This document shows positions 11,879-14,953 of a DNA stretch of 64,000 nucleotides, piece after piece. The number at the start of each line of letters is the position of its first letter. Positions within the stretch are counted from its first letter, which is position 1. A program made the position numbers and the translations under genes. The stretch is taken from the IMG/VR virus record IMGVR_UViG_3300027734_000039; one strand, given 5' to 3'. This DNA is from a virus. The notes under the pieces were generated by a model, which had not been told where the DNA came from, did no database searches, and saw nothing but the letters and a program-made list of their open reading frames with translations.

Positions 11879-11952
11879 TGGCACCAGTGGAAGGAGTCGA
11901 ACCCTCGCCTAGATTTTTGGAGAATCCCGTGCTACCGTAACACTTCACTGAT
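11879..11952 (-). tRNA. tRNA-Trp(CCA)
   Basis: Cloverleaf, loop CTCCAAA, encoded CCA. Confidence 0.85.
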
Positions 11953-11968
11953 ATATAACTATTTAGGG

Positions 11969-12058
11969 TGGTGGAGAGTGTGAGATTCGAACTCACGGAA
12001 CCTGTTAGGGTTCGAGCATTTAGCAAACGCTTGCCTTAAGCCTCTCGGCCAACTCTCC
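11969..12058 (-). tRNA. tRNA-Ser(GCT)
   Basis: Loop TTGCTAA, long variable arm, CCA. Confidence 0.9.
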
Positions 12059-12062
12059 GTAA

Positions 12063-12147
12063 TGGTGGAAGAGGATGGATTCGAACCAACTCACCGTACA
12101 GAATCGATTTACAGTCGACCGCGACTCTCCAACTTCGCCGCTCTTCC
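12063..12147 (-). tRNA. tRNA-Tyr(GTA)
   Basis: Loop CTGTAAA, CCA. Confidence 0.9.
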
Positions 12148-12153
12148 AATTCT

Positions 12154-12227
12154 TGGTACCATCTACTGGTTACGATCCAGTGCTAAGAGTGCCACAAACT
12201 CTTGTGCTACCATTACACTAAGATGGC
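12154..12227 (-). tRNA. tRNA-His(GTG), no G-1, A73
   Basis: Loop TTGTGGC; G1.U72 pair, A73, T at -1. Confidence 0.88.
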
Positions 12228-12228
12228 A

Positions 12229-12304
12229 TGGTGCTGCCTGAGAGGTTCGAACTCCCGACATCTCGATTACTAATCGAGTGCTCTACCAACTGAGCTAAGG
12301 CAGC
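12229..12304 (-). tRNA. tRNA-Thr(AGT)
   Basis: Stem CTCGA/TCGAG, loop TTAGTAA, canonical D and T arms, CCA. Confidence 0.88.
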
Positions 12305-12309
12305 ATATT

Positions 12310-12386
12310 TGGTGCGCTTGGAGGGAGTCGAACCCCCAAAACTTGGTTTCTAAGACCAATACGTATACCAATTCCGTCACAAGCGC
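12310..12386 (-). tRNA. tRNA-Leu(TAG), short variable loop
   Basis: Loop CTTAGAA, CCA. Confidence 0.85.
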
Positions 12387-12392
12387 ATTTAT

Positions 12393-12467
12393 TGGAGCGG
12401 ACGATGAGATTCGAACTCACGACAACTTGCTTGGCAAGCAAGGACTCTACCACTGAGCTACATCCGC
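12393..12467 (-). tRNA. tRNA-Gly(GCC)
   Basis: Loop TTGCCAA, CCA. Confidence 0.9.
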
Positions 12468-12472
12468 ATTAA

Positions 12473-12547
12473 TGGAGTTGCCTCCCAGAATCGAACTGGG
12501 TTCTCAAGGATTTGCAGTCCCGTATATTACCATCCTACTCAGGCAAC
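12473..12547 (-). tRNA. tRNA-Cys(GCA)
   Basis: Loop CTGCAAA, U73, CCA. Confidence 0.85.
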
Positions 12548-12550
12548 AAT

Positions 12551-12624
12551 TGGCGATCCTGAAGGGACTCAAACCCTCCTTTTCCCGTAGACAGCGGGAA
12601 GCCTTCTCTGACGGCAACAGGATC
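12551..12624 (-). tRNA. tRNA-Asp(GTC)
   Basis: Loop CTGTCTA, G73, CCA; T-loop TTTGAGT. Confidence 0.8.
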
Positions 12625-12626
12625 AG

Positions 12627-12704
12627 AACTCGTGATAGGACTTGAACCTATATGCTCCCGAATACTGCCGTAGACAAGAGAACTTACGCTTAGTTGACAC
12701 GAGT
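12627..12704 (-). ncRNA. tRNA-like element lacking a canonical anticodon loop and CCA
   Basis: Acceptor ACTCGTG/CACGAGT, D-like AACT/AGTT, T arm ATAGG-TTCAAGT-CCTAT; anticodon arm extended. Confidence 0.6.
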
Positions 12705-12710
12705 ATAAAC

Positions 12711-12786
12711 TGGTGCTGTTGGAGAGAATCGAACTCCCGACCTGATGATTACAAATCAACTGTTCTACCAATTGAACTACAACAGC
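12711..12786 (-). tRNA. tRNA-Thr(TGT)
   Basis: Loop TTTGTAA, CCA. Confidence 0.9.
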
Positions 12787-12792
12787 GAATAA

Positions 12793-12880
12793 GTGGGAGC
12801 TAACCTTGGCTCCCGTCGGATCTATTTGTCGCGATCAACCGTTTGAGGGTTCCATGCATAAACGCTGTCTACCCACACCC
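12793..12880 (-). ncRNA. Structured RNA candidate between tRNA-Ala and tRNA-Thr
   Basis: Three helices: CGTTT/AAACG, GTTG-ATC/GAT-CGAC, GGGAGC/GCTCCC. Confidence 0.4.
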
Positions 12881-12884
12881 ATTT

Positions 12885-12960
12885 TGGTGGAGACATGCGG
12901 GATCGAACCGCAGACCTGAAGCTTGCAAAGCTACCGCTCTCCCAACTGAGCTATGTCCCC
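12885..12960 (-). tRNA. tRNA-Ala(TGC)
   Basis: GGGG start, G3.U70, loop TTTGCAA, CCA. Confidence 0.92.
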
Positions 12961-12962
12961 AA

Positions 12963-13045
12963 ATTCATCCGCGTCTTTTATAGTGGCTAAGTTATCGCAG
13001 CCCCACTACTGGTACGCACATCATCAGATCTAGAAACCGATGAAT
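12963..13045 (-). ncRNA. Structured RNA candidate between tRNA-Val and tRNA-Ala
   Basis: Closing ATTCATC/GATGAAT, inner TGCGT/ACGCG and TAGTGG/CCACTA helices. Confidence 0.4.
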
Positions 13046-13060
13046 AGTAATCCAGCGACT

Positions 13061-13135
<75 letters not shown>

Positions 13136-13141
13136 ATATAA

Positions 13142-13220
13142 TGGCTCCCAGTGCCGGAATCGAACCGACCTAACCATTGCTTAACAGGCAAGTCCATGCA
13201 CCATGCTCGGATTTCTGGGA
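13142..13220 (-). tRNA. tRNA-Asn(GTT)
   Basis: Loop CTGTTAA, G73, CCA. Confidence 0.85.
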
Positions 13221-13348
13221 ATAGAATTACTTTCCTCGTCTTTTACCGTTTTGCGGTTTAAATTCTGGAAGTAATTTTTTAAATCTTTGAACTAAATTTG
13301 GCTTAGATTTATCATAACCTGTTTGTTATAATTAACAGTATATAAACT

Positions 13349-13624
13349 TTAGTTACAAACTCGTTCTTGACGAATGCCGTAAGGAGTGCGGCGATCGACG
13401 ATATAGCAATGAGGACGACGAGGATAAACAGGAACATAACGTTCCTGATAAACTACTGGACGTCGCTCAACGTATACTGGACGGGGCTGAGACGCTTCAT
13501 TAGCTACAACTGCACCAGCAGCAGCACCAACAACACCAGCAGCTACAAGTTGCTGTTCGCGTGCTGTACAGCCAGCCAATCCGAGAGCAATAAGTGGAAC
13601 TAATAGAATCTTACGCATTGTCAT
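13349..13624 (-). CDS. Small lipoprotein with glycine-zipper-like segment
   Basis: Lipobox LAGC; AAGVVGAAAGAVV; Pro/Arg/Tyr-rich tail. Confidence 0.75.
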   Translation of the reverse strand: MTMRKILLVPLIALGLAGCTAREQQLVAAGVVGAAAGAVVANEASQPRPVYVERRPVVYQERYVPVYPRRPHCYIVDRRTPYGIRQERVCN

Positions 13625-13632
13625 TCCCCAAA

Positions 13633-14160
13633 TTAGAACTTATAATTTAAGCCAAGCGTGACAACGTTCTCATCGCGATCACGCTTACGGTCAGTGATAT
13701 AACGGTAACGAACATCTGCTTCAATATCGCTTGTGATGTCATAACGGACACCAGCACCAGCAACGTAGATAGGCTCGCGCTTAAGATCAGACCAACGATA
13801 ACCAACGCCAGCAAGAGCATAAGGAACAACAGGAACGAAACCAATCTTATACTGACCGATTACGTTTGTAGTTGCTGTATGTGAACGAAGCTTTGATGAT
13901 TCATTCCAAGCATAATCATAATCAGCTTCTACACGAGCAAACTCTGAAAATTCCCAACCAGCGCGAGCATTAACGCGAAGAGCGTCGTACCAAGGATTGA
14001 TATTTGTTACAGCCTTCGAACCCAAAGAACCGCCAACATAAAATTCAGCCGACTCTTGTGTAGGAGCAGGAGGTGCTGCTGGGGTCTTAGCAGGAATATC
14101 GCTAGCCGAAGCAGCGGTAGCAAAAATCAAACCAACAAATGTTACAACATACTTATTCAT
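13633..14160 (-). CDS. Small outer-membrane beta-barrel (Omp25/RopB-like porin family)
   Basis: Signal peptide then ASDIPAK-PAAPP; FYVGG, PYALAGVGY, GAGVRYDIT, YRY, ends LGLNYKF. Confidence 0.85.
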   Translation of the reverse strand: MNKYVVTFVGLIFATAASASDIPAKTPAAPPAPTQESAEFYVGGSLGSKAVTNINPWYDALRVNARAGWEFSEFARVEADYDYAWNESSKLRSHTATTNVIGQYKIGFVPVVPYALAGVGYRWSDLKREPIYVAGAGVRYDITSDIEADVRYRYITDRKRDRDENVVTLGLNYKF

Positions 14161-14190
14161 ACTTTTTACTCCATTTCAAGTTATACACCT

Positions 14191-14219
14191 ATTATATAGG
14201 TGATAGGTTTAAAAGTCAA
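14191..14219 (-). promoter_or_regulatory. Sigma70-type promoter for the omp gene
   Basis: TTGACT-17 nt-TATAAT. Confidence 0.8.
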
Positions 14220-14220
14220 G

Positions 14221-14310
14221 TGGAGGAAGCGGTGGGATTCGAACCCACGGGAGACTTTCGCCCCCGCTAGTTTTCAAGACTAGAACCTTAAACCACTCGG
14301 TCACACTTCC
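14221..14310 (-). tRNA. tRNA-Ser(TGA)
   Basis: Loop CTTGAAA, long variable arm, CCA. Confidence 0.9.
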
Positions 14311-14316
14311 ATTAAT

Positions 14317-14393
14317 TGGTCGGAGTGGCAAGACTCGAACTTGCGACCTCTGGTACCCAAAACCAGCGCACTACCAGGCTGTGCTACACTCCG
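14317..14393 (-). tRNA. tRNA-Pro(TGG)
   Basis: CGGAGTG start, loop TTTGGGT, CCA. Confidence 0.92.
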
Positions 14394-14404
14394 TTATTCT
14401 TATT

Positions 14405-14480
14405 TGGTGATCTCTGTGGGATTCGAACCCACGACAATTCGATTAAAAGTCGAATGCTCTACCAACTGAGCTAAGAGATC
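14405..14480 (-). tRNA. tRNA-Lys(TTT)
   Basis: Loop CTTTTAA, CCA. Confidence 0.92.
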
Positions 14481-14483
14481 TAA

Positions 14484-14558
14484 TGGTTGGCACAGGTGGT
14501 TACGATCCACCGACCCCTGTCTTATCAGGACAGTGCTCTACCGCTGAGCTATGCGCCA
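14484..14558 (-). tRNA. tRNA-Ile(GAT)
   Basis: Loop CTGATAA, T-loop ATCGTAA, CCA. Confidence 0.88.
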
Positions 14559-14613
14559 ATATTAAAAAAGTCCCCATCCTAGATCGCCAGTTATTCCCCT
14601 GCTAGGGCGATTC

Positions 14614-14662
14614 CACGCGACACCGAAGTGTTTCATGCCATTACAGGCAATCATCAGGCGTA
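14614..14662 (-). ncRNA. Hammerhead ribozyme (type I topology)
   Basis: UACGC-CUGAUGA-U-UGCC(UGUAAU)GGCA-U-GAAA-CAC(UUCG)GUG-UC^GCGUG. Confidence 0.85.
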
Positions 14663-14722
14663 TAAGTGCAGGGCTAGATGTCCACAAGTTCGATGGGGTG
14701 GTGGACCACACGCCTCTTATAA

Positions 14723-14861
14723 TTGTCTCTTCAAGGATGCACCAGCTATCTAACTTCTGTCACCACCGTCGATTACAGCTGATTATACGGACTGAGAAGG
14801 CTACCTCTGCGTTAAATATTCTGCAGACGCTTCGGGCTCTGATGCACCCATGAAGAGACAA
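14723..14861 (-). ncRNA. Rod-like structured RNA candidate (~140 nt)
   Basis: 22-bp closing helix with one U.U mismatch and two G.U pairs that are valid only on the minus strand. Confidence 0.6.
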
Positions 14862-14904
14862 CCGAAGTTGCCTCAACAAGTTTCTAACAATTTCAAACAA
14901 CAAT

Positions 14905-14930
14905 AAAAAAGGCGGGATTTTAGTCCCGCC
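14905..14930 (-). terminator. Rho-independent terminator
   Basis: GGCGGGA-CTAAAA-TCCCGCC-TTTTTT downstream of HTH gene. Confidence 0.8.
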
Positions 14931-14953
14931 TCTTGAATCTTATATTAAGACTC

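Follow-up and report, generated by a model that had tools for sequence, protein, structure and literature searches.

Hammerheads are the best-known self-cleaving RNAs, and the locus studied here raises the question of what one of them would be doing at the head of a block of phage tRNA genes. The window, a stretch of 64,000 nucleotides from IMG/VR virus record IMGVR_UViG_3300027734_000039, carries the genes of a clamp loader and of a sliding clamp, and its source phage was thus called a T4-like myovirus, the closest isolate being Stenotrophomonas phage DLP6 (63% identity in the clamp loader). An earlier note had proposed that its minus strand carries a hammerhead just before the tRNA genes, and that this ribozyme separates an upstream non-coding RNA from the tRNA precursor.

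The hammerhead and its locus

The features of the locus, apart from those of the RNA that surrounds the ribozyme (see below), are as follows.

15265-37, minus strand: near-consensus promoter
15205-14954, minus strand: small winged-helix ORF
14907..14934, minus strand: intrinsic terminator, an 11-bp stem followed by a U run, 3' of the winged-helix ORF
14714..14906, minus strand: leader of 193 nt with a long imperfect stem (about 14863-38 with 14746-21)
14614..14662, minus strand: type I hammerhead ribozyme, identified by sequence, fold, covarying stems and a core intact in homologues chosen by the surrounding RNA
14662-14658 with 14618-14614, minus strand: stem I, 5 bp, open-ended
14657-14651, minus strand: core CUGAUGA, with all its catalytic bases
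14650-14646 with 14639-14635, minus strand: stem II, a U.U at 10.1/11.1 (14650/14635) and then 4 pairs
14634-14631, minus strand: GAAA, in which G12-A14 are 14634-14632
14631-14628 with 14623-14620, minus strand: stem III, a hairpin closed by a UUCG loop
14619, minus strand: C17, followed by G1.1 at 14618, with the predicted cut between the two
14569-59, minus strand: U-rich spacer of 11 nt between the ribozyme-bearing element and tRNA-Ile
14484..14558, minus strand: tRNA-Ile(gat), called by ARAGORN and Rfam, the first of four tRNAs (order tRNA-Ile-Lys-Pro-Ser)

All the stems, the core, the GAAA and the UUCG that the earlier note had listed at 14662-14614 are present in the sequence. C17 and G1.1 fall where it had put the cut, and the distance from G1.1 (14618) to the start of tRNA-Ile (14558) is 60 nt, in agreement with its approximate figure. 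The bases required in a hammerhead core (C3 U4 G5 A6 N7 G8 A9, G12 A13 A14, the A15.1-U16.1 pair and an H17 other than G) are all found (14657-14651, 14634-14631, 14620 and 14619), and the minimum free energy (MFE) structure of 14666-14610 is the hammerhead three-way junction, with a fold energy that is not unusual compared with shuffled sequence (z = -0.56). A type I descriptor of equal stringency gave a single match in the 64-kb window and matched in 2 of 300 simulated, dinucleotide-matched 64-kb windows, meaning that a chance origin is improbable for one window, yet this figure is inconclusive in a large scan.

One position departs from the usual pattern. Where a Watson-Crick pair, usually G-C, is expected at 10.1/11.1, the window copy has a U.U mismatch. 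Across the family of homologues described below (n = 89), this position is G-C in 48 copies, U.U in 19 and A.A in 14; the pair is thus usual and not absolute. G10.1 helps to bind the metal of the catalytic site, and the activity of the window copy may therefore be lowered by the replacement of G10.1-C11.1. The mismatch lowers the certainty on the rate of cleavage, not on the fold.

The earlier note had proposed a search with the Rfam hammerhead models. When Rfam 15 was run on slices of 421 nt and 81 nt around this copy, neither a hammerhead nor any other family matched the copy, at the gathering score or even at E<=10. Ten family loci compared with Rfam gave tRNAs only, with no hammerhead at threshold, and a canonical member (L016) matched RF02275 with the core aligned correctly (E = 2.8e-5) at 26.5 bits, to be compared with a threshold of 52. 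The Rfam models do not reach this large phage hammerhead lineage.

As for the upstream non-coding RNA, the 193 nt in question do fold unusually well (-62.3 kcal/mol, z = -4.16, none of 200 shuffles being equally stable), but they are not conserved: the corresponding sequence is unrelated in the three closest relatives (L056, L019 and L032). No convincing promoter was found between the terminator, a strong one about 190 nt upstream, and the ribozyme-bearing element. The terminator itself (14934-14907) was also matched as the terminator-like tail of sRNA models.

The RNA around the ribozyme

BLAST of the non-coding stretch showed that about 110 nt around the motif have matches in unrelated phages. 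Among actinophages these are Arthrobacter phages Constance and Karkharias, Mycobacterium phage Gaia and prophages of M. abscessus, and on the enterobacterial side Klebsiella and Escherichia phages and Enterobacter phage EhYP. A position between tRNA genes is shared by the copies of Gaia and phiGD24-3. In the first alignment each of the three stems already had compensatory changes, and Gaia carried a U3/A8 double change. A pattern scan of IMG/VR retrieved 114 contigs, about 89 of them unique. In bacterial genomes, 17 of 47 pattern matches were true members and 30 were chance matches, as estimated beforehand; the carriers belong to Alpha-, Beta- and Gammaproteobacteria, Mycobacterium, Microbacterium, Planctomycetota and Bdellovibrionota. 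In all, more than 150 viral contigs have a homologue, as do isolated phages and the prophages of bacteria from several phyla.

Compared with the closest relatives (L056, a 99%-complete contig of 164 kb, L019 and L032), the similarity begins at about 14713 and ends at about 14570, abruptly on both sides. Since the edges are sharp and the flanks unrelated, the element is a discrete cassette, made of the following parts.

14570..14713, minus strand: whole cassette, about 145 nt, a double-pseudoknot scaffold with the hammerhead between P3a and the internal N-CGYGGAG motif
14707..14713, minus strand: 5' motif N-CGUG-(U)-G (GCGUGUG here), invariant in 55 of 55 aligned homologues
14706-01 with 14685-80, minus strand: helix P0, whose loop contains the 5' strand of P1, forming pseudoknot 1
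14698-14692 with 14578-14572, minus strand: helix P1, 7 pairs, with an AC tail (14571-70) after its 3' strand
14677-74 with 14582-79, minus strand: helix P2, 85-86% paired
14673-68 with 14602-597, minus strand: helix P3, 99.4% paired
14583..14611, minus strand: 3' domain, with the pseudoknot-2 helix (14611-06 with 14588-83), which crosses P3
14596-89, minus strand: invariant loop GAAUAACU, enclosed together with the 3' strand of P3 by the pseudoknot-2 helix
14611..14618, minus strand: internal motif N-CGYGGAR (GCGUGGAA here), whose first five bases double as the 3' strand of stem I

The scaffold was defined by the 5' N-CGUGG, a P0 with a loop that forms P1 together with the 3' end, P2, P3, the internal N-CGYGGAR and a hairpin with a GGGGAAUAACUG loop that pairs with P3a. 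Every helix of this definition is present in the window. A covariance model built from the nested helices only (R1) found a single copy there, at 131 bits over the full length; it recovered Gaia, which was outside the seed, at 117 bits, rejected both chance pattern matches, and found no cassette in DLP6, Melnitz or T4.

Covariation was measured on 55-57 non-redundant sequences. The score was 0.50-0.54, as against 0.16-0.17 after column shuffling (0 of 500 shuffles reached it) and 0.05-0.16 with slid partners, and 88-89% of the cells were paired (32-46% with slid partners). All helices were supported, both pseudoknots included. P0 is 99.1% paired with compensatory changes in 5 of its 6 pairs; P1 has changes on both sides in 7 of 7 pairs, its percentage of pairing being lowered by MAFFT misalignment of a variable region; and in the pseudoknot-2 helix, where pairing reaches 97-98%, compensatory changes occur in 5 of 6 pairs. 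All three stems of the ribozyme show two-sided changes in the same set (n = 55-57), the 2.1/1.1 pair being C-G in 28 copies, G-C in 21-23 and A-U in 5. About 30 bases of the scaffold are invariant.

The geometry of the composite RNA is particular. Stem I meets a conserved junction and the second pseudoknot after 5 bp, so that this pseudoknot sits directly atop it, with a 5-bp stem II opposite whose loops are conserved by subgroup. At that position of stem I, natural hammerheads usually have a tertiary contact with loop II; no covarying partner for loop II was found in the family alignment.

The first family set had been chosen by the core itself, and we thus rescanned IMG/VR with a pattern for the scaffold only, which gave at least 117 contigs and, among the matches listed, 106 unique copies. 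The consensus core is complete in 99 of these 106 copies among the matches listed, which bears out the claim that it matches the hammerhead consensus. In the same listed copies, position 7, known to be free, varies (U49 C40 A9 G1), and the cleavage-site base H17 is never G (C67 A36 U3 G0). The seven exceptions among the matches listed comprise two U3/A8 double changes, one insertion, one parsing artefact and three copies that are probably disabled (G5C in L218, U4C in L219 and a degenerate core in L198). The U3/A8 double change, carried by Gaia and L190, is natural and active in hammerheads (PMC3088659). Active hammerheads are conserved in this way, and the catalytic bases are under purifying selection; as these are strongly selected, cleavage matters wherever the ribozyme is present. 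It is these comparative data, covariation together with conservation of the core in copies chosen without it, that decide for a hammerhead. In our estimate, the window element is very probably a real, selected hammerhead fold, and its U.U copy probably cleaves in vivo.

The family comes in more than one architecture. In a third one (the type of L015 and of the E. coli prophages), the hammerhead and the 3' domain are present without the 5' domain. It was found in EhYP and in lambdoid prophages, and 108 of 5,426 complete E. coli genomes (about 2%) carry it, unannotated, between the Q antiterminator and holin genes. For the family as a whole, the interval that separates the Q antiterminator from the lysis genes is a recurrent setting (12-14 loci), as is the position directly upstream of terminase or HNH genes.

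What the cut would do

The reading that we favour, with a probability of about 0.72, is that the window carries a type I hammerhead, an optional module of a double-pseudoknot cassette, which would cut ahead of the tRNA genes. For the 3' strand of stem I, the ribozyme uses the N-CGYG of the scaffold motif N-CGYGGAR. Once the cassette has been transcribed as the first part of the tRNA block, cleavage is predicted between C14619 and G14618. The known hammerhead mechanism would leave the ends that the earlier note had named: a 5' piece, comprising the leader and the 5' domain as well as the ribozyme core, would end in a 2',3'-cyclic phosphate, and a 3' piece would start with a 5'-OH and contain the 3' domain, the spacer of 11 nt and the four tRNAs (tRNA-Ile-Lys-Pro-Ser). 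Release of tRNA-Ile from this piece would be the work of RNase P, with a 3'-domain fragment of about 60 nt left over.

The role of a free-standing separator does not fit this arrangement. The ribozyme is an insert in an RNA of about 145 nt (14713-14570), and after the cut the two halves can remain joined by the 17 base pairs of P1, P2 and P3, meaning that cleavage alone separates nothing. The likely product is thus a nicked, folded small RNA with new ends, not a simple release. We tentatively propose that these products are themselves the purpose of the cut, namely new ends where the tRNA transcript begins (a 5'-OH precursor and a cyclic-phosphate leader) plus the nicked folded RNA.

About equally likely, and compatible with that purpose, is a reading in which the double-pseudoknot RNA is the functional unit, a stable small RNA found in tRNA arrays and late-operon leaders that would serve as a decoy, a mimic, a sensor or a protein-binding RNA, and the hammerhead nicks or trims it, any tRNA processing being incidental. 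This possibility gains from scaffolds that have no ribozyme. A short-gap pattern retrieved 28 contigs (compare with about 3 expected by chance), 22-23 of which are genuine. At least 19 to 23 copies are without the ribozyme. They retain the 5' motif, P0, P1, P2, P3, the pseudoknot and the internal N-CGYGGAR, and they have 2-5 nt or a small hairpin in the place of the hammerhead. Their five helices covary (0.53 as against 0.18, with 0 of 500 shuffles reaching it), P0 being 99.2% and P3 100% paired; the scaffold is therefore a structured RNA in its own right. The hammerhead is an optional insert between P3a and the internal motif, and because the scaffold functions without it, cleavage cannot be essential to the scaffold's own job.

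The link to tRNA genes leads in the same direction. A same-strand tRNA lies within 1 kb in 39 of 117 ribozyme-bearing loci, that is, in 39 of the 40 loci with any tRNA. Within 300 nt, however, a tRNA is found beside 12 of 23 ribozyme-less scaffolds and beside 24 of 105 ribozyme-bearing ones. Since the ribozyme-less copies adjoin tRNAs more often, the association, which the earlier note had tied to self-cleaving ribozymes, is a property of the scaffold. Within an array, the cassette takes up about as much room as a tRNA would, with neighbouring tRNAs 0-2 nt from its edges (spacing calculated from the length of the element). The invariant bases of the scaffold also speak for its being the functional unit, as does the lack of a conserved protein partner, the largest flanking family occurring in 15 of 101 loci. 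On the other hand, at least four fifths of the scaffold copies found carry the ribozyme, with the strong selection on catalytic bases described above, and the third architecture retains the ribozyme and the 3' domain while it is the 5' domain that is dropped.

A further feature of the cassette suggested that the ribozyme might be gated.

14715-07 with 14664-56, minus strand: potential ribozyme-off helix, 9 bp, hiding the 5' strand of stem I plus C3 and U4

In such a scheme the 5' motif (14715-14707) would mask the stem I strand and C3/U4 until the 3' domain has been made or a signal received, and after cutting the same pairing could trap the product and block religation. For the window sequence, the alternative helix is part of the MFE structure of all nascent transcripts up to the 3' strand of the pseudoknot, and the two states have similar energies (-33.0 kcal/mol for OFF, -32.3 for nested ON). 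Moreover, N7 (here the N of the 5' motif) and N2.1 covary and can pair in 51 of 55 copies (G-C 27, C-G 21, U-A 3). Across the family, though, the helix occurs in the nascent MFE of 19 of 55 members, to be compared with 18 of 55 for a mutated control. The identity of N gives a similar answer. The N of the 5' motif is the same base as N1.1, the first after the cut, in 52 of 55 aligned copies and, in a larger set, in 108 of 119 ribozyme-bearing copies, but also in 19 of 19 insert-less copies and, by a separate count, in 22 of 22 ribozyme-less scaffolds. As this identity holds without the ribozyme strand, it is a rule of the scaffold, and the alternative helix may be a by-product. A closing helix between the 5' motif and the 3' tail is not a general feature, being no commoner than in a swapped-tail control, except for long stems in 7 of 108 copies, and the window copy has none; mutual information across the columns revealed no other cis partner tracking N. 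In insert-less scaffolds N is a pyrimidine in 18 of 19 copies, as against G in about half of the ribozyme-bearing ones (Fisher p = 3e-4), and this frequent G fits pairing with N2.1 and not pairing of motif with motif. A pyrimidine N would permit mutual pairing of the two quasi-palindromic motifs. The pattern of N is compatible with three mutually exclusive pairings among near-identical or complementary strands (5' motif, inserted stem I strand, internal motif), but is no proof of a switch. We regard a gated ribozyme as doubtful and gating by an external signal as unlikely. A bolder version, in which the scaffold is a sensor and the hammerhead a natural allosteric ribozyme that reads its state and reports the double-pseudoknot conformation, seems to us improbable; if it were true, the scaffold would bind a ligand, a protein or a tRNA and the ribozyme-less copies would be the bare sensor.

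Next, the window copy could be an inactive look-alike that no longer cleaves, leaving the scaffold as the one functional part. The mismatch at 10.1/11.1, the lack of an Rfam match and the disabling core changes of some relatives go in this direction; yet all other catalytic bases are intact in the window copy, the U.U subgroup to which it belongs (with L056, L019, L032, L017 and others) retains the core, and close U.U relatives show compensatory changes in stems I and III, which makes such a decay quite improbable. The formation of a circle of about 95 nt, in which the 5' motif would replace the 3' product in stem I after the cut and be ligated to C17, is more improbable still. The 5' motif does copy the first six bases of the 3' product, and upstream tRNAs end right at the motif in some arrays; but ligation needs a 5'-OH on the motif, no cleavage site (stem III followed by UH) precedes it, the bases before it are not conserved, and the identity rule holds without the ribozyme. 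Lastly, the idea that the conservation is due to a small protein, prompted by a 49-codon ORF spanning the element on the same strand (14562-14711) and by hypothetical proteins annotated over parts of it in Constance and Gaia, is hardly credible in view of compensatory substitutions in seven to nine helices, of stem II and III segments that differ in length by non-multiples of three, and of a ribozyme module that is either there as a block or missing altogether.

Relation to known systems

With the favoured reading of a hammerhead built as an optional module into a double-pseudoknot cassette, the locus gives access to a hammerhead lineage that escapes standard annotation, although T4-like, lambdoid, T7-like and actinobacterial phages all have members of it. 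The ribozyme forms one physical unit with a second structured RNA, which is uncatalogued and has its own invariant bases and two pseudoknots, and this scaffold sits in tRNA-like slots of phage tRNA arrays and in late-operon leaders. The family makes it possible to test what bacterial and phage hammerheads are for, whether they are under conformational control, and what non-tRNA RNAs do in phage tRNA clusters. Cultivable carriers exist in Mycobacterium phage Gaia, Arthrobacter phage Constance, Enterobacter phage EhYP and the lambdoid prophages of E. coli.

The element shares with the type I hammerheads of Rfam (clan CL00010: RF00163, RF02275 and relatives) the core, the three-helix junction, the open stem I and an H17 that is C, A or U. 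It differs from them in its scores, which stay below gathering even for the canonical member, and, unlike usual hammerheads, about a third of the members have U.U or A.A at 10.1/11.1.

Ribozymes under conformational control are known: viroid hammerheads masked by alternative folds, glmS, and the tandem of c-di-GMP-II and a group I ribozyme. The likeness is that another pairing can displace the catalytic fold, or that this fold is linked to a structured domain of its own kind; the difference is that selection for the alternative pairing is not established in the phage family. The T4 tRNA cluster, for its part, contains two stable non-tRNA small RNAs, species 1 and 2 (rnaC and rnaD). They resemble our cassette as non-tRNA small RNAs in tRNA-like slots of a T4-type phage. 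A kinship was looked for with model R1, which found nothing in the T4 tRNA region or genome.

The phage and prophage hammerheads of Perreault et al. 2011 share the setting, and for them the cutting of long phage transcripts was proposed (PMC3088659). A pseudoknot between stem I and loop II was described there (PMC3088659), whereas here stem I is built on a motif of a separate double-pseudoknot RNA. The PaP3 and Bcep176 hammerheads, whose biochemical testing in that study could have served as validation, are not of the same family, and the family signature is absent from the supplements examined, a set that is possibly incomplete. The pipeline used in 2011 rejected mispairs at 10.1/11.1 (PMC3088659), which may explain the absence of the lineage from the models. 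In the literature searched we found no paper linking hammerheads to phage tRNA arrays, mycobacteriophages or lambdoid late leaders, and none that describes the lineage or contains the scaffold signature, although one may still exist.

The published link between ribozymes and phage tRNAs, on which the earlier note had relied, concerns the HDV-like theta ribozymes, which lie 3' of tRNAs; hammerheads are unmentioned there (Kienbeck et al. 2024, PMC10879173). A theta ribozyme has the nested double-pseudoknot fold of HDV and cuts at its own 5' edge, right behind a tRNA. We considered a theta identity for the window element and rejected it: no HDV-type Rfam match was obtained, the fold is a hammerhead and it lies upstream of the tRNA. 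The two remain alike as small self-cleaving ribozymes beside phage tRNA genes, and the maturation of tRNA transcripts independently of host RNases, which was proposed for theta (PMC10879173), may be a role of the window hammerhead as well. They differ in place and in expected product: theta is 3' of the tRNA, with a proposed precise removal of the trailer, while the window hammerhead is 60 nt 5' of it and would leave a fragment for RNase P. They also differ in distribution, theta being found in gut phages of Bacteroidota and Bacillota, and the hammerhead family in T4-like, lambdoid and T7-like phages and in actinophages.

Matching bases and flanking RNA of the cassette

The scaffold (window 14713-14570, minus strand) carries a 5' motif, N-CGUGG, and an internal motif, N-CGYGGAR, whose N is the first base after the predicted hammerhead cut. 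The N of the 5' motif (14713 in the window) and that of the internal motif (14618) are the same base in about 91% of the ribozyme-bearing copies and in all scaffold copies that lack the ribozyme, the combinations being C/C, G/G and U/U. No base pair within the element accounts for the covariation of the two positions.

About 7 of the 108 cassettes are enclosed by long outer stems of 13-24 bp that take in the 5' motif and are specific to each locus (L024, L079, L108, L074, L064, L239 and L249, among others). Such predicted stems may offer sites to RNase III or act as insulating clamps; none was found around the window's own cassette. The window has a leader between terminator and cassette (14714-14906, minus strand) that is much more stable than its shuffled versions (-62.3 kcal/mol, z = -4.2) and folds into an imperfect long-range stem of about 24 bp, which could form an RNase III-type site. 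The leader also holds a perfect TATAAT at 14787-82, lacking a matching -35 element, and is not conserved in the window's closest relatives, L056, L019 and L032.

tRNA genes and their neighbours

ARAGORN placed 16 tRNA genes in three blocks at 11879-14558 on the minus strand of the window, whereas Rfam at the gathering score recovered 14; the two that it missed are listed first below. The array is broken by a gene for an OmpA-like protein, followed by a putative lipoprotein gene.

12063-12147, minus strand: tRNA-Tyr (ARAGORN)
12551-12624, minus strand: tRNA-Asp (ARAGORN)
14219-14191, minus strand: promoter-like site, near-consensus sigma-70, ahead of the two protein genes
13633-14160, minus strand: OmpA-like outer-membrane beta-barrel protein, 175 aa (PF13505, E = 2e-13)
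13349-13624, minus strand: putative lipoprotein, 91 aa, after the OmpA-like gene

The protein gene pair looks like a phage moron lodged in the tRNA cluster, perhaps with a role in surface modification or exclusion. At another locus, L034, ARAGORN predicts a Pyl-labelled tRNA (anticodon CUA) about 2 kb downstream of the cassette; it could be an amber suppressor tRNA of that viral contig.

Apparent loss and exchange of ribozyme and scaffold domains

In the scaffold copies L218, L219 and L198 the hammerhead core carries G5C, U4C or is degenerate, changes that are probably disabling, which suggests that the hammerhead occasionally decays while the scaffold is kept. Two Klebsiella phages have hammerhead cores about 85% identical to that of the window, U.U mismatch included.

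L002, 1506-1554: window-like hammerhead core, phage BaqKoxi
L005, 1002-1049: window-like hammerhead core, phage 05F01

Their peripheral domain is unlike the window's and has covarying helices of its own; since the same core is thus joined to a different covarying periphery, one ribozyme module appears to have been grafted onto a second scaffold.

A further form, found at L130, L015, L023, L038 and other loci, consists of the hammerhead and the 3' domain with no 5' domain.

L130, 2501-2637: hammerhead and 3' domain, E. coli EC6622 chromosome

This form is present in 108 of 5,426 complete E. coli genomes, unannotated in every one; in lambdoid prophages it lies between the Q antiterminator and holin genes, and the T7-like Enterobacter phage EhYP has a near-identical copy that separates its capsid and tail-tube genes.
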